IMG/VR virus record: IMGVR_UViG_3300045988_176129
Span: 1 to 24,699 of that record
Length of the DNA: 24,699 nucleotides
Reading direction: 5' to 3' (one strand)
Source of the DNA: a virus
Every line of letters begins with the position of its first letter. Within the stretch, counting starts at the first letter, position 1. Positions 613 through 19,211 of this stretch are shown here, piece by piece. The position numbers and the translations under genes were made by a program. A model generated the notes under the pieces. It was not told the DNA's origin and ran no database searches. It worked only from the letters and a program-made list of their open reading frames with translations.

Positions 613-1730
613 GTGATTCGCTAAGTCACATGCGTTCTCTTATGAACTGCTATATATTTCTATATAGAGTAGACTATATCTTCACCCTAAGATTAGGGGC
701 CCACCACTTCCACAACCATCGCTTGTTGTGTACTCTCTTTCGAGATAGTCGTTGAACCTTCCTTTTATAAAAGGCTTGGCTGCTGATTACCTTCAACATT
801 ACTTGTAAGGCTTCCCAGCAATTCAATGGGTTTTCTGCTATTGATTACTCAATAGTGATGCTAATACACTTTTTTGTTCATCAGTTAAATTTTGATAAGA
901 TAAATAATAATCTTTATAACTTTGATTTTTTCTAATGCATTCTAATGTATTTCTACTTTTTACTCCTACAAAATTTGCCATTTCATTAAGTGGAATAATC
1001 TTGTTTTCATAATTATATAAAATTAAATGCACTTGCTGCTCAGTTAAATGTCTTTTAGACTTTATTATTGTAGAATAAGCTTTCTTTTCAATAAGATTTT
1101 GACTTTCACAAAAAATTTTATATATCTCTTGCTTTTCTTCTATTGAAAGCTTTTCATATTCTTCTTTATATTGGGAGTGATTTTCTCCTCTTTTTATTCT
1201 ACTAATAGTTGTCCTAGATACATCATATATATCTGATAATACTTGTCCAGGTCTTGACATAAACTCAAGAACAGCTAATATATTAAAAATATCTGTTTGG
1301 GTTAATTTTGAGCCTCCATTACTAGCTCCAAAATTTCCACCCTCATTTTGATTATAACCATTTCTATAACTATCATATTTTTTTATATAATATTTTTCTT
1401 TTTCTCCAATTTCCTTTTCAGTGCAATCCCCTGAAAATTCTATTGTAAAATCAAAGTTCTCAAAACCATAAATATTATACTCTTTTTGAAGAAAATGATT
1501 ATCGTGAGTGCCTCTTCTTAAATCCCCAAAATGACGACATCTTCTTCTAATTATATTATTAGTTAATCCTATATAAATTTTATGATTTATCTTATTTTCA
1601 ATTTTGTATATATAATATTGCATAATATCATCCTTTCTATTCTTTTTGATATTATACTTAAAAATAAAATACAAAAAATTGTAACGTTTTGACCAAAAAA
1701 ATTAACATATATTTGACTTTTATTTACTCT
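613..1730 (-). mobile_element. candidate group I intron carrying a GIY-YIG homing endonuclease ORF, inserted between the terminase ATPase and nuclease domains
   Basis: TerL reading frame is broken by ~1.1 kb. The HEG has its own RBS and start. About 225 nt (613-837) and ~70-110 nt (1624-1730) of non-coding flank could form the ribozyme core. Boundaries are approximate. Confidence 0.5.
838..1623 (-). CDS. GIY-YIG family homing endonuclease (I-TevI-like) with C-terminal DNA-binding region
   Basis: N-terminus MQYYIYKIENKINHKIYIGLTNN...RRRCRHF is a textbook GIY-X10-YIG motif. ATG at 1623 is preceded by AAAGGATGA SD. The six-frame track extends to a TTG at 1674. Confidence 0.85.
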   Translation of the reverse strand: MQYYIYKIENKINHKIYIGLTNNIIRRRCRHFGDLRRGTHDNHFLQKEYNIYGFENFDFTIEFSGDCTEKEIGEKEKYYIKKYDSYRNGYNQNEGGNFGASNGGSKLTQTDIFNILAVLEFMSRPGQVLSDIYDVSRTTISRIKRGENHSQYKEEYEKLSIEEKQEIYKIFCESQNLIEKKAYSTIIKSKRHLTEQQVHLILYNYENKIIPLNEMANFVGVKSRNTLECIRKNQSYKDYYLSYQNLTDEQKSVLASLLSNQ

Positions 1731-2378
1731 CTCTTCATCTATTCTTTCCCCACCTGGCAGCTTCCTAGATACATTCATCGTAGGAATAATTACCTCATTC
1801 AATAAGGTTTCATCTATTAAGATAACCTCTTCCATAAGTCCACCAGTAGCACGCTTACCACGAGAATTTTGACTTGCCGCAATAATATCAAGTTTACTTT
1901 CATTTTTAAATTTATATTCAACTTCATTCTTAGATGCTTTTGAAGCACCTCTACTCCAGTCAATTTCATTTTTAAGACCAGGAATAAGCTTGCATAATTC
2001 TTCTGCCTTTTCTCTTGCGATTCCCGCAGCTTGCTCTTTTCCGCCGGTAGTTACGAATAAATGGCTTCCAGGATACAGTATACAACGAAGCATTAGAATT
2101 AAAACTGACAGAAAGCTCTTACTATAAGCTCTTGGAAACGTAGCATACGCATATCTATGTCGCATTACACCACGTAAAAATACTCTTTGATAAAAGAAAA
2201 GATGGAAATTTTCAGGGTTATCCCCACAAAGAAAATCTACAAACATATCTGGATATTCTCGCCAATAAGCTACATATTTTCTTAAAGTAGGAATTTGTGC
2301 TTTAATTCTTTCTTCAGATAAACCAACTTTTTTACCACCAAAAGAAAGGGAGAGTTCCATTAGTTCTTGTAATGCCAA
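1731..2378 (-). CDS. terL: terminase large subunit, 5' exon (ATPase domain)
   Basis: Deviant Walker A PRAYSKS and Walker B VILIDE typical of TerL. Start is TTG at 2378 with AAGGGAG SD and overlaps the upstream stop; an alternative ATG lies at 2360. Homology ends near ...GGERIDEE (~1731). The ORF stays open to 1587 but that stretch is intronic. Confidence 0.65.
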
Positions 2379-2379
2379 A

Positions 2380-3561
2380 TTATCTTTCTCCCTTCATAAT
2401 TTTATCATCCTCTTCTTTTTGAGATTCTATCTCATTATAAAATTCAGCATGATCCTCATTCTCCAAAATTAATTCTTCATCCTCATCTAATTCATTGTTT
2501 TCTTGCTCATTCATCTCTTTCTGAATCTGTATCTTTTTAATAGAATCTTCTATCTGTTGTCCAAAACCTAAATCTTGGGTAACTAATTTATATAAATAAT
2601 TTTCCATATCCTTTAAAGTTAAATCTACTATATCTTGTGGAACATCTGCTAAGGTTGGTGGGATAAAACCTCCATCTCTTTCACACATAGCAACCAACTC
2701 ACCAACAGAATCTACAAAATTATTTTTATCTTCTTTATTCTGAGCCGCGGTAAATTTTGCTGTCTTTCTAAGAGTTTCAGCAACTTTAACTAGCTTTTGA
2801 AATCCTTCAATATCTCCATTATCAATAGCCTGATTAGCTTTAAGATTAGTTTTACATAAGAATATCAAAGTATTCATAGTATCAGCATCTTGAATATCAA
2901 AAGAATGCATCATCTCTTGATAATCCTTTTCTAACAATAGCCATTCATTAGGGGTGTATAATCTTCCCCATTTTAATGCTAATGCTTTCTTATCATCCTC
3001 TGTTAAATCTGCCGCGGGGTTCACTTCTTCTTCAGATATAAAATTACCTTCATTATACATATTAGAAGAACCTACCGCATCTGCGGATGCCCCATACTTA
3101 TAAGCATCATTTTGAGACTCAGCACTCATCCAGGTTTTATATTCAGCCTCAGAAATCTTTCCAGCTTCATAATCCGCCTTTATTTGAGCTTCATATTGTT
3201 CTCTTTCCGCCTGAATTTTTAGCTTATTATCCAAATATTCTTTTTGTAATTTTTCTGTATCATCCCAGTTATACTCTTTCCATTGTCCAAGTCGCATCTT
3301 AGAGAAATATTTACCAATAACAGACATGCCATTCATCTTTACTGGATCTTTTGCAAAAGCCTTATCTCTTAATGTATTCCACTCTTGTTCAATATAAGGG
3401 AAATTGGCCTCTTTGAGAATCCATATAAAAGTCTCAGGTTTAAAATTATCTATATGCATGGTAAGACATTTTTTACAAAGCGTAAAATAGGTTTTATCTT
3501 TCTTTTGATAGAATTGTGTTTCTACCATCTTCTTACCACATTTTTCACATATTCTGTCCAT
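2380..3561 (-). CDS. zinc-ribbon (CxxC...CxxC) acidic coiled-coil protein; possible terminase small subunit / packaging accessory protein
   Basis: 393-aa ORF with AAAGGAGGTG SD and N-terminal CEKCGKK...CKKC ribbon. Lies immediately upstream of and overlapping terL. The TerS assignment is positional only. Confidence 0.6.
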   Translation of the reverse strand: MDRICEKCGKKMVETQFYQKKDKTYFTLCKKCLTMHIDNFKPETFIWILKEANFPYIEQEWNTLRDKAFAKDPVKMNGMSVIGKYFSKMRLGQWKEYNWDDTEKLQKEYLDNKLKIQAEREQYEAQIKADYEAGKISEAEYKTWMSAESQNDAYKYGASADAVGSSNMYNEGNFISEEEVNPAADLTEDDKKALALKWGRLYTPNEWLLLEKDYQEMMHSFDIQDADTMNTLIFLCKTNLKANQAIDNGDIEGFQKLVKVAETLRKTAKFTAAQNKEDKNNFVDSVGELVAMCERDGGFIPPTLADVPQDIVDLTLKDMENYLYKLVTQDLGFGQQIEDSIKKIQIQKEMNEQENNELDEDEELILENEDHAEFYNEIESQKEEDDKIMKGER

Positions 3562-3620
3562 ATTTTCACCTCCTTTATATAGATAATTATTTATATAGCA
3601 TTAAATAAAATTATTTTGCC

Positions 3621-4709
3621 CTATTTTTTATTCCTGCATTCCTTACAAATAGAATACCATCCATCTTTACTTCCTTTATTAGTAGAAAAGAAAAGCTTGT
3701 GAGCTAACTTTATTTCTCCACAGCGAGAACAGCGCTTCCATTTTCCATATTCTTTTTCTGTATAATACCAATTTAAAAAATCTTTTTGTGCTTGTAATGC
3801 AATAATTTTTGGGATTTTATTTCTCCAGAGACTAGATAAATATTCCATAGAATGTTTAACTCCATGGTCTACTTCTAGCTGTTTTTGAATTTCAAGATTT
3901 GACTTACCATCAATTTTGTATATAACTAAATCATAATATAAAGGATATTTTTCTTTTAATGAACTTTCAACTAAATTATCTAAATCTTCTAATAAATACC
4001 AAGAGTCTCCCCAAAATCCGCCCCATGAATCTTCTTTTAATTTAGAATAATTACACAATAGGGCAGAAATATGTTCCCAATTAAAAAATGAAATTAGCCC
4101 ATCTGAATGCGGCATACCTTCCGCATCTATACTAAGCTTTTCCCCAAAATCAATCTTTCTAAAAGATTTAATTACATTTAAACAATACATTGGTGGTTTT
4201 ATTTCATTTCTAATAACATATTGTTCTTTATACATTTCTATTAACTGTTGTTTTAATAAATATTTTTTCTTTCCTGTTTCTCTTGATATCTGCTCTTTTA
4301 CTTTATCTATAGCTTCTTTTTTTGCCCTTAGTTCAGGCATTTCTTCATAGTCTCTTGGGGTGATTTTCATTTTTGGAGTAAGAATAATATTTTTATTTTC
4401 ACTATCGGTCATCATATTAAATAACCCATCTTCCCCATTTTCAAGTTTAGAAACTAATCCTTGATAAGATGTTTCATGCTTGTTTATTGTGACTAATCTA
4501 TTGTCTGTCATTAAGTCCTTTTCTTTTTTTCTCTCTTCTCTGTCTGCCAAAAGAATATAGTCACTTAATATTGTTAAATATCTAGGTGTAAGTTTCACGG
4601 GATCGATTTCCGCGCATATTTTTTTTACTAATTCAACTCTTTCTACAGAATTAAGAGAGTAATCTAATTTAAATTCCTTTTGTTGATTATCAACATTATT
4701 TTCTTCCAT
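3621..4709 (-). CDS. hypothetical protein with C-terminal zinc ribbon (CSRCG...CKEC)
   Basis: 362-aa ORF with AAGGAG SD. First gene after the minus-strand promoter at 4759-4788. Confidence 0.65.
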   Translation of the reverse strand: MEENNVDNQQKEFKLDYSLNSVERVELVKKICAEIDPVKLTPRYLTILSDYILLADREERKKEKDLMTDNRLVTINKHETSYQGLVSKLENGEDGLFNMMTDSENKNIILTPKMKITPRDYEEMPELRAKKEAIDKVKEQISRETGKKKYLLKQQLIEMYKEQYVIRNEIKPPMYCLNVIKSFRKIDFGEKLSIDAEGMPHSDGLISFFNWEHISALLCNYSKLKEDSWGGFWGDSWYLLEDLDNLVESSLKEKYPLYYDLVIYKIDGKSNLEIQKQLEVDHGVKHSMEYLSSLWRNKIPKIIALQAQKDFLNWYYTEKEYGKWKRCSRCGEIKLAHKLFFSTNKGSKDGWYSICKECRNKK

Positions 4710-4841: not shown

Positions 4842-4866
4842 TTATATATAGAATAAAGGAGAAAAT

Positions 4867-5184
4867 ATGAGAATATTGATTGTGGGATTTCAAGAGTATG
4901 AGACTCTTGATAAGATGATGCAAAAGCTAATAGAAAATGGGCAATGTTATATCTTTACTGTATTGTGCGGCGGTTGTGAATATAGTGAAGAAAAGAGTCT
5001 AGCTGAACAGTGGGCGATAAATAATGGCGCACCCATTGAATATGTATATGAAAAAGATGTGGATAAGCTTGTCGATAAAATAACGAAATCCGCCGATTAC
5101 CTAGTCGCGCAATCAGGCTCATATTTTTCAGATTGGATTATTAGAAAGATGAAATACATAGAAAAACACGGAAGCGTGATTTAA
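4867..5184 (+). CDS. SLOG/DUF2493-like (YspA-like Rossmann) protein
   Basis: MRILIVGFQEY...CYIFTVLCGG...AEQWAINNGAPIEY matches the DUF2493 pattern (vlvcGgRdf...vvhGGa.GAD.lA..WA...g.p). Assigned by recollection, not a search. Confidence 0.55.
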   Translation: MRILIVGFQEYETLDKMMQKLIENGQCYIFTVLCGGCEYSEEKSLAEQWAINNGAPIEYVYEKDVDKLVDKITKSADYLVAQSGSYFSDWIIRKMKYIEKHGSVI

Positions 5185-5193
5185 GGAGGGAAT

Positions 5194-5472
5194 ATGTTTC
5201 AAATAATAGCTACAATTATAGTAGGATATCTTATATTGGTTGCTTGTCAGTTAGCATATCTCATTTCTGCAAAAGAAGAAGATACTTTATTTGATACTTA
5301 TAAACATGTTTTTAGTTTTAAAATTTTATATAAAGAAACAAATTTAAATGAGTTAGGAGTAATATTATATCTTTTAATACAGATAATATTGTTCCTTCCA
5401 GCTGCAGCCGCATATTTTATTTATTGGTTATGTCATAAAAAGGAGAGGTTAAATGGTTTATCAAGGAAGTAA
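5194..5472 (+). CDS. small membrane protein (2 TM)
   Basis: GGAGGG SD; hydrophobic segments. Confidence 0.55.
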   Translation: MFQIIATIIVGYLILVACQLAYLISAKEEDTLFDTYKHVFSFKILYKETNLNELGVILYLLIQIILFLPAAAAYFIYWLCHKKERLNGLSRK

Positions 5473-6175
5473 AAATAGATTAACAAAATATATTGTTCCA
5501 ATAATACAAAAGGAAATAGATGAAAATAATATAACTACGTATATAGAGCCTTTTGTTGGAGGAGCTAATGTTATTGATAAAATTAGCTGTGAAAATAGGA
5601 TTGGCTCTGATATTAATGAAGAGCTAATCTCATTATTGAGATATATTCAAAAGGATAATAATATTTCTATTGCTCCGTCAGAATGTAGTTTTGAGCATTA
5701 TGCGGAAGTTAGAGAAGCTAGAAAGTTAAAAACCGAGAAATTTTCTAAGGAATATACTGCTTTAATTGGCTTTTGTGCAAGTTATGGCGGACGCTATTTT
5801 GATGGTGGATATGGTAGAGATGCTAAAGGTGGTAGAAGTATCTATGCAGAAAGATTAAAAAATTTAAAAGAACAAGCGCCGCATTTAGATGGAATAGAAT
5901 TTAAAAGCGGAGACTATCGGCAGTATGAAAGCACGAAATTCGCATTATTTTATATGGATCCACCATATAAGGGAACTAAACAATATTCTACCAAGTTTAT
6001 AAATTATGATGAATTTTATGATTTTTGTAGGAATTTAAGTAAAAACAATATTGTTTTAATTAGTGAATATAATATGCCGCCTGATTTTAAATGTATTTGG
6101 GAGAAAGAAAGAACTGTAAAGCAAGATGTGAATAAGAAAGGAATGAAAGCAACAGAAAAGTTGTTTATGATATAA
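5453..6175 (+). CDS. dam: DNA N6-adenine methyltransferase, Dam/D12 class
   Basis: YQGSKNRL N-terminus, motif I EPFVGGANV (FxGxG), catalytic DPPY tetrad at 5947-5958. GGAGAGG SD. Overlaps the upstream ORF by 20 nt. Confidence 0.85.
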   Translation: MVYQGSKNRLTKYIVPIIQKEIDENNITTYIEPFVGGANVIDKISCENRIGSDINEELISLLRYIQKDNNISIAPSECSFEHYAEVREARKLKTEKFSKEYTALIGFCASYGGRYFDGGYGRDAKGGRSIYAERLKNLKEQAPHLDGIEFKSGDYRQYESTKFALFYMDPPYKGTKQYSTKFINYDEFYDFCRNLSKNNIVLISEYNMPPDFKCIWEKERTVKQDVNKKGMKATEKLFMI

Positions 6176-6176
6176 T

Positions 6177-6368
6177 ATGTTATTAGATATTACAGACAAA
6201 GAATTAATTCATTATTTAAATTTAATAGATAATAAAGGCATAGAAAAAGATTTGTGTCATTGGAAACGTGATATTAAAAAAAGAATAAAAAAAGGATATA
6301 TAGAAAATAAGCATGATGAATTAGTCTATTGGTGTATAGGAATTTCCGATGGTTGGATAAAATATTAA
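6177..6368 (+). CDS. hypothetical protein (63 aa)
   Basis: ATG 1 nt after the dam stop, possible translational coupling; weak SD. Confidence 0.45.
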   Translation: MLLDITDKELIHYLNLIDNKGIEKDLCHWKRDIKKRIKKGYIENKHDELVYWCIGISDGWIKY

Positions 6369-6381
6369 GGGGGTTGCCGCA

Positions 6382-6669
6382 ATGAAGAAGATTATAATTA
6401 TGTTAGGAATAATAATGTGTTTTAGTTTAACTGGATGCACCAATACTCAAGAAGGACTAAAGGATTATAATATCCATTCTCATTTAATATCAATAGATGG
6501 AGAGAATGATTTATACTATTATTCTACTACACATATTATATATGTAGTATTTAATGAAGGTAGTAACTATCGCGGGTATGGATATATGGCGCCTTATTAT
6601 TCAGAGAATGGAAAATTGTGTGTATATGATGTTCAAAAGAAAGAGATAATAGAATTGGAGGATAAGTAG
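6382..6669 (+). CDS. putative lipoprotein
   Basis: Signal peptide MKKIIIMLGIIMCFSLTGC with lipobox LTG|C; GGGGG SD. Confidence 0.65.
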   Translation: MKKIIIMLGIIMCFSLTGCTNTQEGLKDYNIHSHLISIDGENDLYYYSTTHIIYVVFNEGSNYRGYGYMAPYYSENGKLCVYDVQKKEIIELEDK

Positions 6670-6670
6670 A

Positions 6671-6838
6671 ATGGAATATTTAAACGCGGCAGACATGAAG
6701 AAGGGCTATTATGGTATAACGGTTGAAATGCTACCTATCCTTGTTAAGGAACTTAAAAATATGGGATATGAAATAACATTTAAGTCAGATAAATTAGAGA
6801 GAAGTGGAAGTGGAATAATAATAAGTTGGAGGAAATAA
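6671..6838 (+). CDS. hypothetical small protein (55 aa)
   Basis: GGAGGA SD 8 nt upstream. Starts 2 nt after the previous stop. Not in the ORF track (<60 aa). Confidence 0.5.
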   Translation: MEYLNAADMKKGYYGITVEMLPILVKELKNMGYEITFKSDKLERSGSGIIISWRK

Positions 6839-6840
6839 AA

Positions 6841-7062
6841 ATGTTTACAGTTACTTTTCCGCTTGATATAGGAACAGAAGTTGAATTGAGTGATGGTAGC
6901 CGCGGTACGGTTGCCGCATATGGAAGCGTAAGGGGAGAAAATAATTTTAGTGTTTGGGTATCTGGAATAGGAGAGTTGTGGTGCGGAGAATATATTTTAG
7001 GAACTGAGGAAGATAGAAACGACCCTAATAAAAAGTTCTATTGTTTTGAAATAAAGGAGTAA
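6841..7062 (+). CDS. hypothetical protein (73 aa)
   Basis: GGAGGA SD 8 nt before ATG 6841. The track start 6826 sits inside the SD. Confidence 0.6.
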   Translation: MFTVTFPLDIGTEVELSDGSRGTVAAYGSVRGENNFSVWVSGIGELWCGEYILGTEEDRNDPNKKFYCFEIKE

Positions 7063-7065
7063 AGT

Positions 7066-7338
7066 ATGCTCAGGGAAATGGTGGAAGAAGAAATAAGAGA
7101 GTATAAGAAAAAGAAAAAAGAGTTTTATGACAATCCTTTACATTGGAATAATAATATGCGGAGGAGGCATGGCTTACCTGTATTAAGAGGTAAAGTAAAT
7201 AAATATCGTTTAAAGAGATGCTCTGGTTTTCATCCTACCGCAGAACTTTTTTATTTATTCGATGATGTTGTTTCAAAAGAAGTAGAGAGAAATTTAGAAA
7301 ACTATTTTAATTTTTTTGCGGAAATAAAGGAGATATAA
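7066..7338 (+). CDS. hypothetical basic protein (90 aa)
   Basis: AAAGGAG SD; tightly packed in operon. Confidence 0.6.
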   Translation: MLREMVEEEIREYKKKKKEFYDNPLHWNNNMRRRHGLPVLRGKVNKYRLKRCSGFHPTAELFYLFDDVVSKEVERNLENYFNFFAEIKEI

Positions 7339-7340
7339 TA

Positions 7341-7622
7341 ATGGTAAAAATAGATACATCATATGGAAAATTTTCTGTTGAAAAATCAGATGGAAATATA
7401 ATAAAAGCTAAAGATATACATGAATTAATAGACATATTACTTCCAGAATCAACAGACAATCCCACGACACAAGTTGTTACATATGTAAGTGATGAGGATG
7501 CGCTTGCTGACGCAACTGATTTAACTGTATTGGCGGCATTATGTTGTTGGGGCAATCGGTTATATAAAGGAGATAACATTAAATTGACAATAACTGCGGA
7601 ATATTGTCCTGAAGATAAATGA
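7341..7622 (+). CDS. hypothetical acidic protein (93 aa)
   Basis: AAAGGAGA SD; last gene before the 1.1-kb non-coding region. Confidence 0.6.
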   Translation: MVKIDTSYGKFSVEKSDGNIIKAKDIHELIDILLPESTDNPTTQVVTYVSDEDALADATDLTVLAALCCWGNRLYKGDNIKLTITAEYCPEDK

Positions 7623-8010
7623 TTGGGGTATTAGATTGAAAATTAATTTGGAATGTATATTTTTTCCGTCTTTGTGAATTGAAAAATGATTTGGAATGTT
7701 GGTGTGGGTGCTAAACCCCTTTTCTCAGATTTAATTTTTAAAAATCCCGAAACTATACCCCCGCCTTAATATTTTTGCAACAGAGAAAAAATTCTCTGAG
7801 TATATTGCTAGTTAGGTGAAAAAATTTTGCGAGCACTGTCTGTAGCACCGACCTATCGAAGCGTTGTGAGATCATTTATTAGGCGGGCAAAGAAGATATA
7901 AAGAAGAGTTATATCAAAGATAATAAGAGATATAAAGAAATAATTTTTATATCATTTTTCTTTTGATTACATAATGCGTCGTCTCGGTGACAACGGAGCC
8001 GAGCCGATTT

Positions 8011-8160
8011 TACGTTAGTAGTTAGGCTTAACTAATTTTAGTTGCATACGGCTAACTCTAGTTAGTTCTGACTAACTCCTGTTAGGCTGAACTAACTCAG
8101 GTTCGTCTTAGCTAACCTTGGTTAGACTGAACTAACTTCTGTTAATCACCGCTAACCTCT
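8011..8160. repeat. tandem array of ~7 degenerate ~20-21-bp direct repeats (GTTAGGCTGAACTAACTCnn)
   Basis: Visible periodicity: agttaggcttaactaatttt / agttgcatacggctaactct / agttagttctgactaactcct / gttaggctgaactaactcag / gttcgtcttagctaaccttg / gttagactgaactaacttct / gttaatcaccgctaacctct. Confidence 0.65.
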
Positions 8161-8180
8161 GGGGTGGGCGGGTGGGGGAG
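8161..8180 (+). other. G-quadruplex-type G-tract (GGGGTGGGCGGGTGGGGG), copy 1 of 5
   Basis: Four or more G3-5 runs with 1-nt loops in a 30% GC background. Same relative position as the tracts at 9469, 10669, 11381 and 12786. Confidence 0.6.
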
Positions 8181-8190
8181 GCTTGGGATA

Positions 8191-8219
8191 ATTATACCAC
8201 AAATCTATCTTTTTGTCAA
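8191..8219 (-). promoter_or_regulatory. leftward extended -10 sigma-70 promoter, cassette copy 1
   Basis: rc TTGACA (8214-19), 17-nt spacer, rc TGGTATAAT (8191-99). Confidence 0.5.
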
Positions 8220-8267
8220 GTAGTAATTTTTCACAAAAATAAAAAATTTTTTTGTGCATTTTGCCTA

Positions 8268-8296
8268 TTGACATGGGCGCATTTTTGTGCTATAAT
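8268..8296 (+). promoter_or_regulatory. sigma-70 promoter with no downstream ORF (putative ~450-nt ncRNA 8303-8750)
   Basis: TTGACA 8268-73, 17-nt spacer, TGcTATAAT 8291-96. No SD/ORF before the terminator at ~8715-8752. Confidence 0.5.
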
Positions 8297-8316
8297 TAAA
8301 ATGATATTAAAATGAT

Positions 8317-8351
8317 ACTTTAGCACGTTAAAGTGTCATCACTGCAAAGCG
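8317..8351. repeat. conserved ~35-nt hairpin element (ACTTTAG-CACG-TTAAAGT + GTYATCACTGNRAAGCG), copy a
   Basis: Family also at 8527-8562, 8607-8640, 8683-8703, 9421-9456, 10628-10663, 12725-12760 and 20699-20733. The stem covaries through G-U pairs. Confidence 0.6.
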
Positions 8352-8375
8352 AAAGACTAAGTTAAAATCCGTTTA

Positions 8376-8405
8376 ATTATACCACACAGTCGTATGGTTT
8401 GTCAA
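8376..8405 (-). promoter_or_regulatory. leftward sigma-70 promoter, cassette copy 2 (faces the plus promoter at 8268 across element a)
   Basis: rc TTGACA (8400-05), 18-nt spacer, rc TATAAT (8376-81). Confidence 0.45.
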
Positions 8406-8430
8406 TAGTAAAATGCAAAAAAAATTGCAC

Positions 8431-8462
8431 AAATTTTAATTTCCCATTTTGTGCAATCTGCA
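8431..8462. promoter_or_regulatory. operator-like inverted repeat TTGCACAA-N16-TTGTGCAA
   Basis: Perfect 8-bp arms. A member of the TGCACAA motif family enriched in intergenic DNA. Confidence 0.45.
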
Positions 8463-8479
8463 CAACGAACAAGTGTTTG

Positions 8480-8690
8480 GTTAGCCTTAACTAACTGTCC
8501 AAACAAACGTTCGGTTAGGCAAGACTAACTTTAGTGCGTTAAAGTGCTATCACTTTGCAGTGAACGTGTGGTCGGTTAGGTAAGACTAACTCAAGTTAGG
8601 AGAGGCTAACTTTAGCACACTAAAGTGATGCAGTAGCAAAGAGTTAGTTAAGACTAATTTAAGTTAGTTCAGACTAACATTAACACTTTA
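8480..8690. repeat. second cluster of GTTAG..GACTAACT iteron-like repeats interleaved with three copies of the 35-nt element
   Basis: ggttagccttaactaact / cggttaggcaagactaact / cggttaggtaagactaactc / agttagttaagactaatt / agttagttcagactaac. Confidence 0.55.
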
Positions 8691-8714
8691 ATGTGTTAAA
8701 GTGTTAATACAAAA

Positions 8715-8752
8715 GAGTAGCACAAAGAACACCTGTTCTCTGTGCTTTTTTC
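8715..8752. terminator. bidirectional rho-independent terminator
   Basis: Hairpin GCACAAAGAACACC/TGTTCTCTGTGC followed by TTTTTTCTTTTAT on plus; T-rich on minus as well. Confidence 0.5.
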
Positions 8753-8754
8753 TT

Positions 8755-8880
8755 TTATTTGTTCAATGATTCAATAATCGTAAAACCTGCCATTTCCGCA
8801 TGTCTTATTTCTTCTGTTGTCATTTCTGTTTTTCCTATTGTGCTATTGTTTAATTTTACTATTACTTTTCTCATGGCCAT
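8755..8880 (-). CDS. hypothetical small protein (41 aa) on minus strand inside the early region
   Basis: AAGGAAAGG SD plus its own minus promoter (8910-8938). MAMRKVIVKLNNSTIGKTEMTTEEIRHAEMAGFTIIESLNK. Not in the track (<60 aa). Confidence 0.4.
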   Translation of the reverse strand: MAMRKVIVKLNNSTIGKTEMTTEEIRHAEMAGFTIIESLNK

Positions 8881-8909
8881 CACCAATTCCTTTCCTTATC
8901 TTTATACTA

Positions 8910-11320: not shown

Positions 11321-11380
11321 ATAGCTTAAAAGTTAGTTGTAACTAACTAAGATTAGACTCGACTAACTCCGGTCTTCTCC
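11321..11380. repeat. third short cluster of GTTAG/ACTAACT iteron-like repeats
   Basis: aagttagttgtaactaactaagattagactcgactaactcc. Confidence 0.45.
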
Positions 11381-13086: not shown

Positions 13087-13548
13087 ATGAGAGAGTTTGA
13101 AAAAGTATTGGTATTTGATATGGATGGCACAATAGCTAATCTATATGGAGTAAATAATTGGCTTGAGTCATTGAGAGCGTATGACCCCAGCCCTTATGAA
13201 AAGGCAATGCCCCTATATGACATGGATATGCTTAATTCTATATTACATATCATAAAATCTAAGGGTTGGCATATTGTAGTTACAAGCTGGCTTTCAAAGG
13301 AATCCACCCCTATATATGATAAGGCAGTCCGCAAAGCTAAAAGAGATTGGTTAAAAGAATGGGGCGTCCCATATGATGAAATACATCTTGTAAAGTATGG
13401 AACACCAAAGCATAGAGTAACAAGGTATCCTTTTCAGGTGTTAGTTGATGATAACGCAGATGTGCGGAGTGCATGGCATGGACGCACAATAGATGCAAAC
13501 AAAGATATTATAAACGAACTTATAAAAATAGTTATGGATGAATTTTAG
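13087..13548 (+). CDS. HAD-superfamily hydrolase, 5'(3')-deoxyribonucleotidase-like
   Basis: HAD motif I VFDMDGTIA at the N-terminus. Overall resemblance to the NT5C-type dNMP nucleotidases common in large phages. Confidence 0.6.
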   Translation: MREFEKVLVFDMDGTIANLYGVNNWLESLRAYDPSPYEKAMPLYDMDMLNSILHIIKSKGWHIVVTSWLSKESTPIYDKAVRKAKRDWLKEWGVPYDEIHLVKYGTPKHRVTRYPFQVLVDDNADVRSAWHGRTIDANKDIINELIKIVMDEF

Positions 13549-13925: not shown

Positions 13926-14150
13926 ATGATGAAAAATTTAAAAACTATATCAATAATTACAATAGTGGTGACAGAAATAATTCACTTTATCCTTGCTATT
14001 GCTTTTGTTGGTATTATGGTAATATTAACTAAATACAGTTTTTCATGGAAAACTGTTATATGTATCTATTTCGTAATAGACTGGATAAAAGGTTTACAGT
14101 ATAGTTATGAGTTATTACGAGTTGGGTTTATTGTTGGCAGGTTTAAATGA
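13926..14150 (+). CDS. small membrane protein (74 aa, 2 TM)
   Basis: AGGAGG SD 13911-16. The track's 13851 start is an upstream in-frame extension. Confidence 0.55.
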   Translation: MMKNLKTISIITIVVTEIIHFILAIAFVGIMVILTKYSFSWKTVICIYFVIDWIKGLQYSYELLRVGFIVGRFK

Positions 14151-14158
14151 AAAAACAC

Positions 14159-14187
14159 TTGACAAATAAAATATAATATGATATGAT
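14159..14187 (+). promoter_or_regulatory. sigma-70 promoter
   Basis: TTGACA 14159-64, 17-nt spacer, TATGAT 14182-87. Confidence 0.5.
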
Positions 14188-14219
14188 AGATATATCAAAT
14201 GAAAGAGAGGTATAATAAT

Positions 14220-14444
14220 ATGAAGATTACAGAAACTAAAAAAGCAACAATAGAAGTTACAGATGAGGAATATCGCACTATTCAGACTTTCTGTAAATGG
14301 TTAAATGATAACTTATGTTGTGAAGATGTATCCTGTGCAGTGCAAGTGTTTGGAGAAGAAGAGCTTCTTATTTTTGAAGGTATATCTCCAACAATGAACA
14401 ATGTTGATATAGAGATTAAAATAAAAAATTTTAATATATCATAA
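14220..14444 (+). CDS. hypothetical protein (74 aa)
   Basis: AGAGAGGTA SD. The track start 14199 has no SD. Confidence 0.55.
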   Translation: MKITETKKATIEVTDEEYRTIQTFCKWLNDNLCCEDVSCAVQVFGEEELLIFEGISPTMNNVDIEIKIKNFNIS

Positions 14445-14475
14445 TAAATATATCAAATGAAAGGAAATAGTGTAT

Positions 14476-14634
14476 ATGACTAAAAATGAATTTATGGATA
14501 GTATTTTAAAAGAGATTGGCTCTTATTATGATGAATGTGAAAATAGTATTTTAAAGGAGATTGAAGAAAATGAGGTTATAGAGACTGCTAGAGATTTTCC
14601 ACGGTCATACATAAATTCTGATGAAAATTTGTAA
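14476..14634 (+). CDS. hypothetical small acidic protein (52 aa)
   Basis: AAAGGAAA SD. Not in the track. Confidence 0.45.
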   Translation: MTKNEFMDSILKEIGSYYDECENSILKEIEENEVIETARDFPRSYINSDENL

Positions 14635-14646
14635 AGCATAAAAATT

Positions 14647-14695
14647 ATGCACAAAAAGCCTGAGGTAGAAAATATCTCAGGCTTTTTGTGCATTT
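14647..14695. terminator. bidirectional terminator / large perfect palindrome
   Basis: TGCACAAAAAGCCTGAGG-tagaaaatat-CCTCAGGCTTTTTGTGCA. Arms carry the TGCACAA motif. T-rich flanks on both strands. Confidence 0.55.
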
Positions 14696-14758
14696 TGACG
14701 AAAAATAGAATCGGCATTTTGCACAAAAGCGTAAATGAAAATTTGTATGAATTGCCTA

Positions 14759-14787
14759 TTGACAAGCACCCCTGTATGTGATATAAT
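14759..14787 (+). promoter_or_regulatory. sigma-70 promoter firing into a GC hairpin
   Basis: TTGACA 14759-64, 17-nt spacer, TATAAT 14782-87. Confidence 0.5.
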
Positions 14788-14790
14788 TGG

Positions 14791-14819
14791 GCGGCGCGTG
14801 CCCTGCCCTTACGCGCCGC
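14791..14819. other. perfect 9-bp GC hairpin (GCGGCGCGT-gccctgccctt-ACGCGCCGC) between convergent promoters
   Basis: Both facing promoters would start transcription inside or adjacent to it. Confidence 0.55.
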
Positions 14820-14822
14820 AAT

Positions 14823-14852
14823 ATTATACCATAGTCCCCTATGGTTTGTCAA
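14823..14852 (-). promoter_or_regulatory. leftward extended -10 promoter, cassette copy 7
   Basis: rc TTGACA (14847-52), 18-nt spacer, rc TGGTATAAT (14823-31). Confidence 0.5.
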
Positions 14853-15067
14853 GACTAATTTTTAAAAAAATTGCACAAATTTTGCGATTCCCGAAAGACT
14901 TTTATTGTGCAAAATGACGAATTTTAACTTTGTGAAATCTGCACAAAACCCGCCCCGCATTTTTAGTTATTTTGCCATATTGTATTTTACCCTCTAATGT
15001 GATATTATAATACTTGTAAGGAAGAGAAAAACAAAAGCAAGCAACCTTAAAGAAAATAAAAAAAGTG

Positions 15068-15096
15068 CTTGACATTCTACTTCCTAGGGTGTATAA
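15068..15096 (+). promoter_or_regulatory. sigma-70 promoter
   Basis: TTGACA 15068-73, 17-nt spacer, TATAAT 15091-96. Confidence 0.55.
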
Positions 15097-15131
15097 TAAA
15101 TACATAATAAAGAAAAGAGAGGTACAACAAC

Positions 15132-16094
15132 ATGAAAAGAAAGTATTATTTAACATTAGACACAGAGACAGCTACAATGCCATTTGTAAAGTATATGGAT
15201 TTAAGTCCAAAGGCAAGACAACAGGTGGCAATAGCAAAGCCCCTTGTATATGATATAGGATGGTGTATCACTACAACTCAGGGAGATGTTATAAAAAAGG
15301 TAAACTATCTTATACAGGAAACATTCTTTGTTCCACAGGTATTTAATACCGCCTATTATAAGAATAAGCGACCTATTTATATGGAGCTTCTTAAAAAAGG
15401 CGAGATTGAAGTTAGAAACTGGAATAATGCTATAGAAGAACTGATAGCCGACCTTGATTTTTGTGATATGGCATGCGCATATAACGCATGTTTTGATTAC
15501 AAGAAGGCTATCCCGTTTACAGAACGTTATATTAAAGCATTATATAGCGACTACTATAATGAATGGGAAGATATGCAGAGAAAATCTGCTGAAAGGATCG
15601 CTGAAGGTGTTGATGAAAGCGAAAATCCAGAATATCTTGACCCTATTTTCCAGATTAGAGGATATGAGTTTCCTATATTGGATTTATGGGGCATGGCTTG
15701 TAAAAGACTTATAAATGTTAATAGATATAAGAAATTCTGTTATGAGAATAACTTGTTTACTAATTCAGCGATGTATTTTAAAACAAGTGCTGAGACAAGT
15801 TTTCAGTATCTCATGGATAATGTGGATTTTATCGAAGACCATACCGCATTATCAGACGCACTTATTGAGAGTGCAATTCTTACAAAGGGATTAAAAAAGG
15901 GTAAAGTTGAGCCAGATATTACAGCTTTCCCTTTTAGGGAGTTAGGTTATACATATTGCAATTGCCCTAAAAAGTATATCCCAAATGTGGCAAGTGCCTT
16001 TGAAGAATACTTAAATAAAAATAGCAATCATCCATCTAACGCATGGTGGACAAGAATTGAAAGTATTTATGAGGGGCTTATGGCTTACTTATAA
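15132..16094 (+). CDS. DEDDh-family 3'-5' exonuclease (DnaQ/RNase T-like)
   Basis: Exo I LTLDTETAT, Exo II AYNACFDYKKA, Exo III HTALSDALIESAIL. AGAGAGGTAC SD. Confidence 0.8.
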   Translation: MKRKYYLTLDTETATMPFVKYMDLSPKARQQVAIAKPLVYDIGWCITTTQGDVIKKVNYLIQETFFVPQVFNTAYYKNKRPIYMELLKKGEIEVRNWNNAIEELIADLDFCDMACAYNACFDYKKAIPFTERYIKALYSDYYNEWEDMQRKSAERIAEGVDESENPEYLDPIFQIRGYEFPILDLWGMACKRLINVNRYKKFCYENNLFTNSAMYFKTSAETSFQYLMDNVDFIEDHTALSDALIESAILTKGLKKGKVEPDITAFPFRELGYTYCNCPKKYIPNVASAFEEYLNKNSNHPSNAWWTRIESIYEGLMAYL

Positions 16095-16459: not shown

Positions 16460-16843
16460 ATGACACAGAGAGAAATGTTTAACGCAATGGTAAAGGTAGT
16501 AAATGAGGCTTCAGTAGATACTATTGAGGAGGTAGGATTTTCAAAAGATGAACTTCTTGAGGGCATCAATGCTAGAATAGAGGCTCTTGATAAGAAAAAT
16601 AGTTCATCTTCTAGCAAGCCTACAAAAAAGCAGTTAGAAAACGAAGGTATCTATAATAATATTATAGAGATTATGTCTGATAATGCATCTCGTACTGTTA
16701 GACAGATAACAGACATTTACAATTCAACTTTTGATGCAGATTTGTCAACCAATAGAGTCCAGCCACAGGTAACAAAGGCGGTAAAGAATGGAATTTTTAA
16801 CAGAACTGTTGTGAAAGGTGTCGTATATTTTGTAAGCAAGTAA
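16460..16843 (+). CDS. hypothetical protein, paralog A of the 18083 gene
   Basis: MTQREMFNAMVKV...ARIEALDKK...ENEGIY...QVTKAVKNG...VVKGVVYF is alignable along its length with 18083-18526. Confidence 0.7.
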   Translation: MTQREMFNAMVKVVNEASVDTIEEVGFSKDELLEGINARIEALDKKNSSSSSKPTKKQLENEGIYNNIIEIMSDNASRTVRQITDIYNSTFDADLSTNRVQPQVTKAVKNGIFNRTVVKGVVYFVSK

Positions 16844-18082: not shown

Positions 18083-18526
18083 ATGACACAGAGAGAGATG
18101 TATAACACAATTAAGAACATTATCACAGGTATTTCAACAGAGGACTTCGAGGCACTTGCCCCAGAGTTTTCAAGAGAAGAGATTGTTGAGGGTATTGATG
18201 CTAGAATTGAGGCACTCAATAAGAAGTCAACAGGTTCAAAGAAGCCTACAAAGACTCAGATTGAGAACGAGGGCATATATGCTAATATTCTTGCGTTTAT
18301 GGCGGATGGTGCGGCTCGTACTAACAAAGCTATTACTGATACCTATAATCTTCTGTATAACACAGAGTATTCTACAAACAAGATTCAGGCTCAGGTAACT
18401 AAGGCTGTCAAGGGTGGCGCGCTTAACAGGGCAGTAGTAAAGGGTGTCGTATATTTCACCATAAATGCTACTCCTACCGCCACAGATGACTCAGCAGAAG
18501 ATATTGTTGATGATGTAGAAGAGTAA
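18083..18526 (+). CDS. hypothetical protein, paralog B of the 16460 gene, with an extra acidic C-terminal tail
   Basis: MTQREMYNTIKNI...ARIEALNKK...ENEGIY...QVTKAVKGG...VVKGVVYF. AAAGGATGGA SD. Confidence 0.7.
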   Translation: MTQREMYNTIKNIITGISTEDFEALAPEFSREEIVEGIDARIEALNKKSTGSKKPTKTQIENEGIYANILAFMADGAARTNKAITDTYNLLYNTEYSTNKIQAQVTKAVKGGALNRAVVKGVVYFTINATPTATDDSAEDIVDDVEE

Positions 18527-18760: not shown

Positions 18761-18791
18761 AAGGTATAATCAAAAAAGGATGGTGGTAGTT

Positions 18792-19211
18792 ATGAAAATA
18801 ACAACAACAAAAGGTAAAAGTGTTAATGTAAAAGATAGCGTTATTCAGAAATACATGAACGACTTCTCTCTTACAAAAGAGGACGCTATTCAGATGTATC
18901 TTGAGGATGAAGGCTTCGAGGATAACGAGGATGTAGAAGAAATGACTACAAAAGCCAAAGAAAATAAAGCAGTTATGCATGGCGAGAGTGCTGACAAAGA
19001 CGAACGCAAAGTCACCAACAAGAAACAGTCTAAGCCTAAGACAGTGAAAATCTCAGATACAAAAAAAGAACTTTTTAGTAAAATATCACAGTTTTTGACC
19101 GAAACTTTTGGTGAAAATGCTGAAGTTCTTAAAGAAAATAAGCTGATACAGGTTAAAATTGGTGAAGATATGTTCAAAATAGACATAATTCAGCAGAGAA
19201 AACCAAAGTAA
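18792..19211 (+). CDS. hypothetical charged protein (139 aa)
   Basis: AAAGGATGG SD with 9-nt spacing to ATG 18792. The track start 18780 abuts the SD. Confidence 0.6.
   Translation: MKITTTKGKSVNVKDSVIQKYMNDFSLTKEDAIQMYLEDEGFEDNEDVEEMTTKAKENKAVMHGESADKDERKVTNKKQSKPKTVKISDTKKELFSKISQFLTETFGENAEVLKENKLIQVKIGEDMFKIDIIQQRKPK

Follow-up and report, generated by a model that had tools for sequence, protein, structure and literature searches.

The gene-free 1.1-kb stretch at positions 7623-8754 of a large gut phage carries two arrays of a short palindrome, a third array lies further along the same DNA, and the palindrome is also found in pairs on bacterial iron-uptake promoters. The explanation that we tentatively favor is that the arrays are tandem expansions of the operator of a host DtxR-family iron-dependent repressor, which would serve either as a sink or as an iron-coupled landing pad. 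Since the same palindrome is paired on the feoAB promoter beside an iron-repressor gene, the phage probably recruits or soaks up the iron sensor of its host. What is established is the motif with its symmetry and 20-bp register, how widely phages carry it, and where it is located at bacterial feoA and DtxR-like genes; we infer that a DtxR-like protein binds it, that the phage copies are bound too, and all the effects downstream.

The whole stretch of DNA analyzed (the window) has 24,699 nucleotides. The original prediction that 7623-8754 holds no credible ORF stands, as no ORF of at least 60 aa was detected there. Recoding had to be considered because the relative phAss-1 uses code 15; however, neither TAG nor TGA recoding adds an ORF to this region, where the stop-to-stop frames do not exceed 74 codons. 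Named phages gave no near or distant DNA match to the region, short promoter-like pieces excepted. The features identified are listed below, with the strand where a feature has one.

7623-8010, left segment, ORF-free, with an AT-rich stretch at ~7880-7965 and two ATTTGGAATGT repeats
8021-8156, array 1, seven Box A units starting at 8021, 8041, 8061, 8081, 8101, 8121 and 8141
8160-8181, + strand, G-rich tract of the G3N1G3N1G3N1G3 type, deleted in the close relatives L061 and L063
8191-8219, - strand, consensus leftward promoter (TTGACA-17-TATAAT with TG) facing the G/C tract and array 1, deleted in L061 and L063
8221-8262, spacer between the divergent promoters, containing TTCACAAAAA...TTTTTGTGCA and repeat families D4, D5, D7 and D11
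8268-8296, + strand, consensus rightward promoter, start of a proposed 450-nt transcript, absent from L061 and L063
8318-8333, 8529-8544, 8610-8625 and 8686-8701, Box B palindromes of the CTTTAG-N4-CTAAAG type, from a repeat search
8376-8405, - strand, consensus leftward promoter, convergent with the + promoter and retained by all close relatives
8425-8456, inverted repeat TTGCACAA-N16-TTGTGCAA, read from the sequence and kept in L061 and L063
8480-8678, array 2, six Box A units starting at 8480, 8514, 8575, 8595, 8643 and 8663, with interleaved Box B
8715-8752, hairpin terminator with a 12-bp stem, ending the + transcript and the 43-aa gene
8755-8886, - strand, 43-aa ORF with its own promoter at 8938-8910
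11332-11367, array 3, two Box A units flanked by a terminator and a G tract

The left segment shares 94.3% identity with L061, found no counterpart in more distant loci, and contains neither Box A nor Box B. The 43-aa ORF corresponds to a 41-aa gene call in relatives and differs from that of L061 in 5 of its 43 residues; it has neither a Pfam nor a PHROG match. The structural module of the phage is SPbeta-like, with YonG_N and YonD_N Pfam matches among neighboring genes. The window encodes a 5'-deoxyribonucleotidase-like HAD protein (PHROG 2643, 8e-7) and a 320-aa protein, matching no Pfam family and only a function-unassigned PHROG, which from our own motif reading we take to be a possible exonuclease.

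Box A is the palindrome GTTAG-N6-CTAAC, present in 13 copies in 7623-8754 and in 2 further copies at 11332-11367. Allowing up to one mismatch, the window contains 16 matches, when 0.66 are expected, and none of 100 shuffles reached this number. The tandem ~20-bp iterons that had been reported do exist, as seven units with an exact 20-bp period, but the unit is a symmetric palindrome of 16-18 bp (a-GTTAG-tynnra-CTAAC-t) and not a directional 20-mer; those at 8041, 8101 and 8141 are degenerate. The second iteron cluster (8480-8690) was recovered in the form of six Box A units, but not as a plain series, since Box B palindromes are interleaved with them, and the third short cluster (11321-80) consists of Box A units at 11332 and 11352. 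Between array 1 and its counterpart in L061, identity is 96.7% in the half-sites, 79% in the 4-nt linkers and 33% in the N6 spacers. The comparison of repeat number among related genomes, which had been recommended, revealed that array 2 of relatives has lost units in register and has gained one via a 21-bp insertion. This contrast between half-sites and spacers, together with the in-register gain and loss of units between close relatives, points to selection acting on the half-sites and not on the spacers.

The two-unit Box A pattern was found in 53 viral contigs with GC contents of 22-56%, in every case outside ORFs and in runs of up to 35 units. The consensus derived from 195 distinct in-register units of these loci is symmetric, with half-site positions conserved at 81-97%, and the 22 units with a double mismatch comprise 4 mirrored and 18 non-mirrored cases. 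Symmetric conserved half-sites with so few mirrored double mismatches suggest a dimer that reads the sequence of duplex DNA rather than an RNA stem. Some relatives scatter lone Box A sites in nearly every intergenic spacer, and another has 7 arrays in about 7 kb. In many relatives the clusters sit after the terminator of one early gene and before the promoter of the next, and in six the arrays lie 1-5 kb past the terminase block. Box A arrays are absent from SPbeta and from phAss-1, which has one Box A site.

We did not find any protein universally adjoining the arrays. Their commonest neighbors are the HAD nucleotidase (19 loci), a sigma-like 362-aa protein (11), the 320-aa protein (11) and a group of winged-helix paralogs (7). 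A nuclease-like family of ~150 aa, located 42-240 bp from arrays in 10 loci and without a Pfam or PDB family match, was discarded as a candidate because it is absent from the window. The two winged-helix proteins encoded in the window could bind Box A instead of the host repressor.

The same doublet, with N6 within each unit and an N4 linker, occurs in more than 120 bacterial contigs of many phyla, including Clostridia, Melainabacteria, Treponema, Actinomycetota and Succinivibrionaceae, when about one occurrence would be expected by chance according to our own arithmetic from the size of that collection. Faecalitalea cylindroides ATCC 27803 and Clostridium sp. OM02-18AC are represented among these loci, while a few of the loci labeled bacterial are phage contigs binned into MAGs. 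In bacteria, 12-40 bp separate the doublet from the downstream feoA, and the -35 hexamer is on the other side of the doublet; a TTGAC is present no more than 30 nt upstream in about two thirds of the feoA-linked cases. According to Pfam, the neighboring genes encode FeoA (PF04023, 1.4e-20), FeoB (PF02421, 1e-53) and a DtxR-family repressor (PF01325 plus PF02742). Among 120 bacterial loci, FeoA was found in 33, FeoB in 32 and a DtxR-like gene in 25, with at least one of them in 54, so that only about half of these loci have Feo or DtxR genes within 8 kb. The doublet is also present 58-127 bp upstream of DtxR-like genes, an autoregulatory position. By this gene neighborhood, a DtxR-like protein is the putative binder of the doublet. 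No homologue of FeoA, FeoB or DtxR is encoded in the window or in the examined DNA of the 53 phage loci, and the phage copies of Box A are therefore orphan operators.

The palindrome is thus placed on metal-uptake promoters and at DtxR-family genes, as would be expected of a DtxR operator, but it is not the canonical 19-bp DtxR/IdeR box, which is TTAGGTTAGSCTAACCTAA (PMC1382209). Both contain the half-site letters GTTAG/CTAAC, and the spacing is N6 in Box A and N1 in the canonical box. Box A would be a distinct operator type within the DtxR family, and we have found no description of the doublet operator in the literature.

The tox operator of corynephage beta is a phage-borne site bound by the DtxR of the host, and the Box A arrays, for which we propose a host repressor of the same family, would resemble it in both respects. 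However, the tox operator consists of one site, which overlaps a promoter and represses one gene, whereas here there are 15 sites in three arrays off the promoter cores, spaced by N6 within and N4 between units, and a regulated cargo gene is not evident by the arrays. It is also known that many high-affinity sites on replicating DNA lower the amount of free regulator and derepress its regulon, as datA does with DnaA and as exploited, through multicopy Fur boxes, in the Fur titration assay. The datA locus of E. coli is chromosomal and the Fur titration assay is a laboratory construct, whereas the proposed sink would be phage-borne and natural. We know of no natural phage array of metalloregulator operators, nor did we find one in the literature.

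The arrays flank a cluster of promoters. The original prediction had noticed an excellent plus promoter at 8268-96 and two leftward promoters, and all three proved to be perfect sigma-70-type promoters (+ 8268-8296, - 8219-8191 and - 8405-8376), each with a 12/12 match and a TG extension. The inferred start sites of the convergent pair, 8268-8296 (+) and 8376-8405 (-), are ~66 bp apart. An arrangement like that of the rightward promoter exists in the distant relative L010. In L061 and L063 a ~200-bp deletion has removed the plus promoter, the G tract, one leftward promoter and the first Box B, and both arrays are still present; a leftward promoter facing array 1 persists even in these variants. 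The spacer between the divergent promoters is found again in the window's other intergenic modules and shares 80-84% identity over 63 nt with several distant loci. The G4 tract announced for this region is indeed there (GGGTGGGCGGGTGGG at 8162-8176, with a chance expectation of 0), and the window has five G tracts, every one on the + strand. The proposed TTGCACAA-N16-TTGTGCAA operator is also present, and elements resembling it were seen in L010, L024 and L043. As for the strong bidirectional terminator, its 12-pair stem was located at 8719-8746, but the scan calls it on the minus strand only, the T run of the plus strand being recognized by eye.

Of the 323 exact phage Box A sites, none falls in the interval from ~50 bp downstream to 17 bp upstream of a strong promoter's -35 hexamer, counted from the first base of that hexamer, and no single fixed distance between palindrome and promoter was found across loci. 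A strong promoter fires away from the array within 250 bp in 50 of 98 arrays, and a promoter fires into the array in 33 of 98. That the sites never cover promoter cores and vary freely in number argues for a high-avidity sink as the main effect. In some relatives, L034 among them, Box A precedes the -35 hexamers of several early promoters at a constant distance of 9-11 bp, which looks more regulatory than a passive sink.

If the host repressor is the binder, its iron-loaded dimers would line up along a single face of the DNA, each taking 20 bp, and would fill the arrays flanking the hub of very strong early promoters. With the multiplication of the phage genome, these arrays would pull the repressor from the host chromosome, and iron uptake would be derepressed; a secondary or alternative effect might be that the hub acquires a roadblock or landing pad that depends on iron. 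Non-coding phage DNA could then rewire the metal homeostasis of the host through its copy number alone, without the involvement of any phage protein, which would tie phage infection to the iron supply of the gut. This would define a new class of "cis-acting" takeover devices and would offer a testable function for the repeat-rich non-coding gaps of many large phages. For uncultured bacteria of many lineages, the doublet predicts an operator and its regulon, i.e., feoAB under a DtxR-like repressor, and the operator type carried by a phage might aid host prediction.

Other host regulators may be addressed in the same way. Perfect palindromes of the Rex and cre types are present in the equivalent gap of a relative, the Enterococcus phage EF1, whereas no such sites were found in the window, and their presence in EF1 suggests a lineage habit of gathering sites for host regulators. 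In L038 (4 boxes), L028 (4) and L002 (2), clusters of perfect DnaA boxes accompany arrays at distances of 39-136 bp, and judging from both kinds of sites the lineage seems to collect binding sites for host factors. A bolder and rather doubtful generalization is that a large clade of phages from gut, rumen and environment uses expandable arrays of host transcription factor operators as sponges, of the DtxR type here and for DnaA, Rex and cre in relatives. Replicating arrays would strip the regulator from the host chromosome and turn on ferrous iron uptake or other regulons to the benefit of the phage. Such sponges would be the natural counterpart of the laboratory Fur titration and would take over the host without a protein.

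A binding-site array for a DNA-binding early protein had been one of the roles initially considered; of those roles the array alone agrees with the evidence, but the bound protein is more likely a host metal-dependent repressor, judging from the bacterial context. It is unlikely that the arrays are operators of a dimeric phage regulator switching early cassettes off or on, e.g., one of the winged-helix paralogs encoded at 16460-16843 and 18083-18526, although in 7 loci these are part of a conserved early cluster close to arrays and a structure model of one of them has a confident winged-helix domain (mean pLDDT 82.8). SPbeta, related to this phage via its YonG/YonD-type structural genes, also repeats a short intergenic element in early-gene promoter regions: SPBRE is found at about 10 early promoters and is bound by MrpR (PMC10516654), which acts through it as master repressor. 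The position of Box A clusters between early-gene terminators and the next promoters, the outward promoters close to half of the arrays and the Box A sites upstream of -35 hexamers in L034 would suit such a regulator. Moreover, MepR, a MarR-family winged-helix protein, recognizes GTTAG-N4-CTAAC (PMC3936728), showing that these half-sites can be read by this fold with an N4 spacer; it is the only site with the motif that we found in the literature, a precedent but a different site. However, a phage regulator leaves the identical doublet on the feoA promoters of unrelated phyla unexplained, and the conservation of the motif across phages of 22-56% GC is more easily explained by a conserved host factor. 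Sequence searches against Pfam, PHROG and PDB gave no match for the paralog, Foldseek returned only weak fold matches for its model and none at E <= 0.001, and no homologue of the family was found in GenBank phages. SPBRE (ATACAAAAAATATGTAT type) has a sequence unlike Box A, is a single copy per promoter bound by a phage protein of the tyrosine-recombinase fold, with tandem arrays unreported, and no MrpR-like gene appeared in the 24.7 kb examined of a genome of ~140 kb. Still less probable is an iteron-type replication origin, in which an initiator would occupy the phased repeats, the DNA at 7880-7965 would melt and leftward transcription would activate or prime replication. The layout is classical, with seven phased 20-bp repeats by AT-rich DNA and two repeat clusters around a promoter hub, and it shares these traits with the origins of P1 (oriR/incA), F and R6K and with centromeres such as pSK41 parC and the omega-binding repeats of pSM19035; the DnaA boxes of some relatives and the persistence of a promoter facing array 1 point in the same direction. 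In contrast to those systems, the units here are palindromic, no initiator or partition gene is adjacent, and the relatives disperse their sites through most spacers, with several arrays in a few kilobases and very long runs, instead of concentrating them at one or a few loci. No DnaA box was found near the arrays of the window, the extremes of the cumulative GC skew (~4.7 kb and ~21 kb) coincide with flips of gene orientation away from 7623-8754, and the Box A doublet is a promoter operator in bacteria. The origin initially suggested is consequently not borne out.

A packaging or injection-stop signal had been raised because of the supposed proximity of the terminase block, which in fact is 2.9 kb away with nine small + strand genes between, and a pac site or a T5-like injection-stop region near a genome end now appears highly improbable. 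In T5, the first-injected DNA has at its edge an untranslated region of 1.2 kb that contains palindromes, nine tandem repeats and DnaA boxes, and these boxes have been proposed as binding sites of a host protein (bioRxiv 10.1101/866236). This Repeat Region 3 resembles ours as a palindrome- and repeat-rich stretch among early genes, and the HAD nucleotidase-like protein and the possible 320-aa exonuclease, the latter from motif reading only, recall T5 pre-early genes; the two regions are unrelated in sequence and hosts, we see no terminal repeat or fixed end, and the stop mechanism of T5 is only a proposal. The pac site of SPbeta was likewise placed in a non-coding gap that heads the late cluster (PMC8270828), and we found no comparable repeats in that gap. 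By our own count, the largest array is no more than 7 kb from a contig end in 9 of the 23 contigs with at least 50 kb, but the overall bias of arrays toward contig ends is weak and not significant (KS p = 0.087). The two long scaffolds of the phage have their breaks at differing places, 33 kb and 12 kb away from the region, so that no fixed end is visible; a unique pac site cannot be reconciled with so many dispersed sites, and phAss-1, opened at its PhageTerm end, has a single Box A. Hardly more credible is an RNA product, be it a structured transcript of 450 nt (8303-8750) or tandem hairpins transcribed leftward. Consensus promoters do face all three arrays, the terminator closes the + transcript, the promoter-to-array layout is repeated in L010 and L038 as well as in the third of arrays that receive a promoter, and the fold score is z = -8.1. 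However, such a score is expected of any palindrome-rich DNA, the half-sites are conserved in sequence and show little covariation, and many relatives keep their arrays in spacers after terminators and before promoters. In L038 the G/C tract is on the opposite strand relative to transcription, and neither Rfam (gathering and E-value modes) nor a tRNA search gave a match in the region. The long ncRNA of the original prediction is not the conserved element, because close relatives lost the plus promoter and the G tract and kept the arrays. Finally, it is improbable that the region lacks a dedicated function and consists of two or three piled-up intergenic cassettes of the standard kind (terminator, palindromes, GC tract and divergent promoters), left after small early genes were lost via repeat recombination. 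This would explain the length of the gap but neither the selection on Box A nor the match to a bacterial operator, and six relatives have arrays at 1-5 kb past the terminase block; the pile-up could coexist with the host-operator reading but is no substitute for it. The cassette module does recur in the window at about 9420, 10620, 11380 and 12720, the deletions of close relatives have their endpoints inside repeats, and in L010 the cassette is inverted relative to the terminase block.

In the ORF-free region at 7623-8754 of the window (24.7 kb, GC content of 31.6%), no ORF reaches 60 aa before the 43-aa leftward ORF at the right border. Because the relative phAss-1 decodes TAG as an amino acid, this gap was also re-read taking either TAG or TGA as sense; the longest frame had at most 74 codons. 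The lack of a credible ORF pointed out in the original prediction is thus confirmed, as are the tandem repeat clusters, the promoters, the G tract and the terminator. The description of the repeats holds with two corrections, i.e., the repeat is the palindrome GTTAG-N6-CTAAC (Box A), and the second cluster is interleaved with another palindrome, CTTTAG-N4-CTAAAG (Box B, often CACTTTAGCGCGCTAAAGTG). Allowing at most one mismatch, Box A has 16 matches in the window versus 0.66 expected, 14 of them inside three clusters (arrays 1-3). The features are:

650-911, 838-1674 and 1587-2378, minus strand: large terminase gene split by a group I intron, left end of the window
2380-4709, minus strand: two more leftward genes beside the terminase
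4867-7622, plus strand: nine small genes between the leftward block and the gap
8021-8156: array 1, seven Box A units in exact 20-bp register, including a degenerate unit at 8041
8162 (8162-8176), 9472, 10682, 11382 and 12787, all plus strand: five G3N1G3N1G3N1G3 tracts (none expected by chance)
8219-8191, minus strand: sigma-70 consensus promoter, 12/12, TG extension
8268-8296, plus strand: sigma-70 consensus promoter, 12/12, TG extension
8405-8376, minus strand: sigma-70 consensus promoter, 12/12, TG extension
8318, 8529, 8610, 8686, 9423, 10630 and ~12722: Box B
8480-8678: array 2, six Box A units interleaved with Box B
8719-8746, minus strand by scan: hairpin terminator with a 12-bp stem; the plus-strand T run was read from the sequence
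8755-8886, minus strand: 43-aa ORF, right border of the gap
11332-11367: array 3, two Box A units

The terminase intron belongs to group I (Rfam RF00028, 94.7 bits), and the ORF inside it is, according to the contig look-up, a GIY-YIG protein (PF01541); in the close relative L058 the terminase is uninterrupted (581 aa). The head of the terminase block encodes a 362-aa protein (3621-4709, minus strand) with a match to PHROG 5767 "sigma factor" (5e-43) and a zinc-ribbon or HNH-like C-terminal tail. One of the small genes between this block and the gap (5453-6175, plus strand) encodes a D12-class N6-adenine DNA methyltransferase (PF02086, 1.5e-20).

The arrangement seen in the gap recurs in the window at about 9420, 10620, 11380, and 12720, in the order terminator, Box B or Box A, G tract, consensus leftward promoter, TTCACAAAAA...TTTTTGTG spacer, and rightward promoter elements; thus, the gap looks like several standard modules without intervening genes. 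Transcription from a consensus leftward promoter would start just ahead of each of the five G tracts, so that each module is predicted to yield a C-rich RNA about 100 nt long that stops at the upstream gene's terminator. At 8268-8405, two perfect consensus promoters converge, with inferred starts about 66 bp apart and Box B in the overlap, a layout that would cause transcriptional interference or produce a pair of sense and antisense RNAs. Box B accompanies Box A in many phage loci, with tandem runs in L028 (4083-4520), and its half-site resembles the KorB operator, TTTAGCSGCTAAA.

The close relatives L061 and L063 are 94% identical to the window in the left segment, but their repeats are strongly divergent. 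Identity in array 1 is 96.7% for the half-sites and 79% for the 4-nt linkers, but no more than 33% for the N6 spacers. Through a deletion of about 200 bp, both relatives have lost the seventh unit of array 1, the G tract at 8162, the minus-strand 8219 and plus-strand 8268 promoters, and the first Box B. They retain both arrays, the minus-strand 8405 promoter, the TTGCACAA-N16-TTGTGCAA element, the terminator, and the small ORF. This pattern argues that the half-sites of Box A are under selection and that the 450-nt transcript, proposed in the original prediction to start at the 8268 promoter, is dispensable. In array 2, units have been lost in register and one 21-bp unit has been gained.

Scanning IMG/VR for two adjacent Box A units yielded 53 loci with GC contents from 22% to 56%; the longest arrays have 35 units (L038), 19 units (L029 and L023), and 18 units (L010). 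All arrays of at least three units lie outside ORFs of 70 aa or more. Six loci have the terminase block in common, with arrays 1-5 kb past it. L010 shares the internal layout of the window (array, Box B, TTGTGCAA elements, promoter, Box B, and its 18-unit array), inverted relative to the flanking genes. In L023, L034, L028, and L004, Box A occupies almost all early-region spacers, between the terminator of a small gene and the next promoter, reaching 54 sites in 14 kb of L023. Strong promoters within 250 bp fire away from 50 of 98 arrays and into 33 of 98. Counted from the first base of the -35 hexamer of strong promoters, the stretch from 17 bp upstream to about 50 bp downstream contains none of 323 exact sites. 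The 195 distinct in-register units yield a symmetric consensus, a-GTTAG-tynnra-CTAAC-t, in which the half-site positions are 81-97% conserved, and the 22 double-mismatch units have their changes mostly at non-mirrored positions (18 versus 4 mirrored). This fits a homodimer reading duplex DNA and not an RNA helix.

The two-unit pattern was also scanned against one genome per bacterial species (596 Gb), where at least 120 loci carry the doublet, against about one match expected by chance (20 fixed bases in 596 Gb, our own arithmetic from the stated collection size). The matches listed, the majority of them exact, include Clostridia, Christensenellales, Melainabacteria, Treponema, Succinivibrionaceae, Fibrobacter, and high-GC Actinomycetota, among others. 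Typically, a TTGACA hexamer precedes the bacterial doublet and a small gene begins after it; this gene encodes FeoA (PF04023, 1.4e-20) and is followed by FeoB (PF02421, 1e-53), and a DtxR-family repressor gene (PF01325 and PF02742) is often close. Among the 120 matches listed, FeoA is found within 8 kb in 33, FeoB in 32, the repressor in 25, and any of the three in 54; the doublet is mostly 12-40 bp from feoA and 58-127 bp from the repressor gene. This gene neighbourhood suggests that a DtxR-family iron-dependent repressor controlling ferrous iron uptake has Box A as its operator. None of the three proteins is encoded in the sequence searched around the phage arrays. The canonical DtxR box is TTAGGTTAGSCTAACCTAA (PMC1382209); it has letters in common with Box A but a different spacing, and thus Box A would be a separate operator type, of which no description was found in the literature.

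Binding of the host repressor is, tentatively, the most likely reading of the arrays, which would be tandem expansions of a DtxR-type operator in its native 20-bp register. Within it a sink is favoured, because the phage sites stay clear of promoter cores, unlike the bacterial doublet with its place after the -35 hexamer and before the start of feoA, because the number of units is free to vary, because position and orientation relative to promoters differ among phages, and because constraint is limited to the half-sites. A replicating genome (15 sites here, the 54 of L023) would present thousands of sites per cell, and the laboratory Fur titration assay relies on extra operators derepressing a metal regulon. 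The alternative is an iron-dependent roadblock: arrays 1 and 3 lie about 28 and 38 bp downstream of leftward-promoter starts inferred from hexamer positions and sequence. In L034, Box A stands at a fixed 9-11 bp upstream of the -35 hexamer of several promoters, which keeps a regulatory role open.

The arrays could still be operators of a phage-encoded regulator. The structural genes of the window are SPbeta-like, and SPbeta offers a precedent in a repeated promoter element bound by MrpR (PMC10516654); a MarR protein reads GTTAG-N4-CTAAC (PMC3936728), and a conserved early cluster of the window includes genes for two winged-helix paralogs. This explanation leaves the feoA doublets unaccounted for. 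The paralogs (16460-16843 and 18083-18526, plus strand), with a confidently predicted C-terminal winged helix (mean pLDDT 82.8), had no homologues among GenBank phages; around them are a 320-aa protein (15132-16094), a 143-aa protein (18780-19211), and a HAD 5'-deoxyribonucleotidase-like protein (13087-13548).

The other roles raised in the original prediction fare worse. A replication origin agrees with the local layout and the DnaA boxes of relatives, but it is contradicted by the GC skew, the multiplicity of sites, and the lack of an adjacent initiator gene in the window. A packaging or injection-stop signal is at odds with the dispersed sites, and no end signal is seen in the scaffold ends or array positions: the 140,464-bp ENA scaffold containing the window and a 136,749-bp relative, 98.8% identical across the region, end 33 kb and 12 kb from it, so the assemblies give no fixed genome end. 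A function of the RNA product is contradicted by the promoter deletion in L061 and L063 and by the lack of covariation.

A phage-borne DtxR operator at the tox gene and the titration of regulators by extra binding sites are both known. What appears to be new, as we have not seen it described, is an expandable, phased operator array for a host metalloregulator, outside promoter cores, across a wide phage clade; if confirmed, such a sponge would be a new mechanism.

A family of ~150-aa proteins with a conserved E...GD...QxK pattern (L038 4978-5421, L023 5328-5846, L003 8426-8899, and 10 others) adjoins Box A arrays at 42-240 bp in 10 viral loci. The window has no member of this family, which gave no convincing Pfam or PDB match and, by our reading, may be nuclease-like. 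SPbeta (NC_001884) has an unannotated 1.7-kb ORF-free gap of fairly high GC between yonK and yonN (59153-60834), near the terminase block, in which Box A was not found.

Sites for other host factors were found in relatives. Three of them have perfect DnaA boxes (TTATCCACA) no farther than about 140 bp from Box A sites, namely L038 (four after the 35-unit array, 4865-4909), L028 (four, 6504-6555), and L002 (two, 4345-4365); no such cluster was found near the arrays of the window. Enterococcus phage EF1 (MF001358), with a YonG-like gene in common (34% identity), shows a non-coding gap of 1 kb in the corresponding position (14044-15200), where Box A was not found. This gap contains TTGTGAA-N4-TTCACAA, the consensus Rex box, twice perfect and once with one mismatch, and two perfect copies of TGTAAGCGCTTACA, an optimal CcpA cre site; both recur in another cluster at a distance of 6 kb (8295-8897). 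Neither site was found in the window. Together with the DnaA boxes, these sites suggest that the phage lineage stocks its non-coding hubs with host-regulator operators. EF1 also carries ATAACA-NN-TGTTAT repeats.
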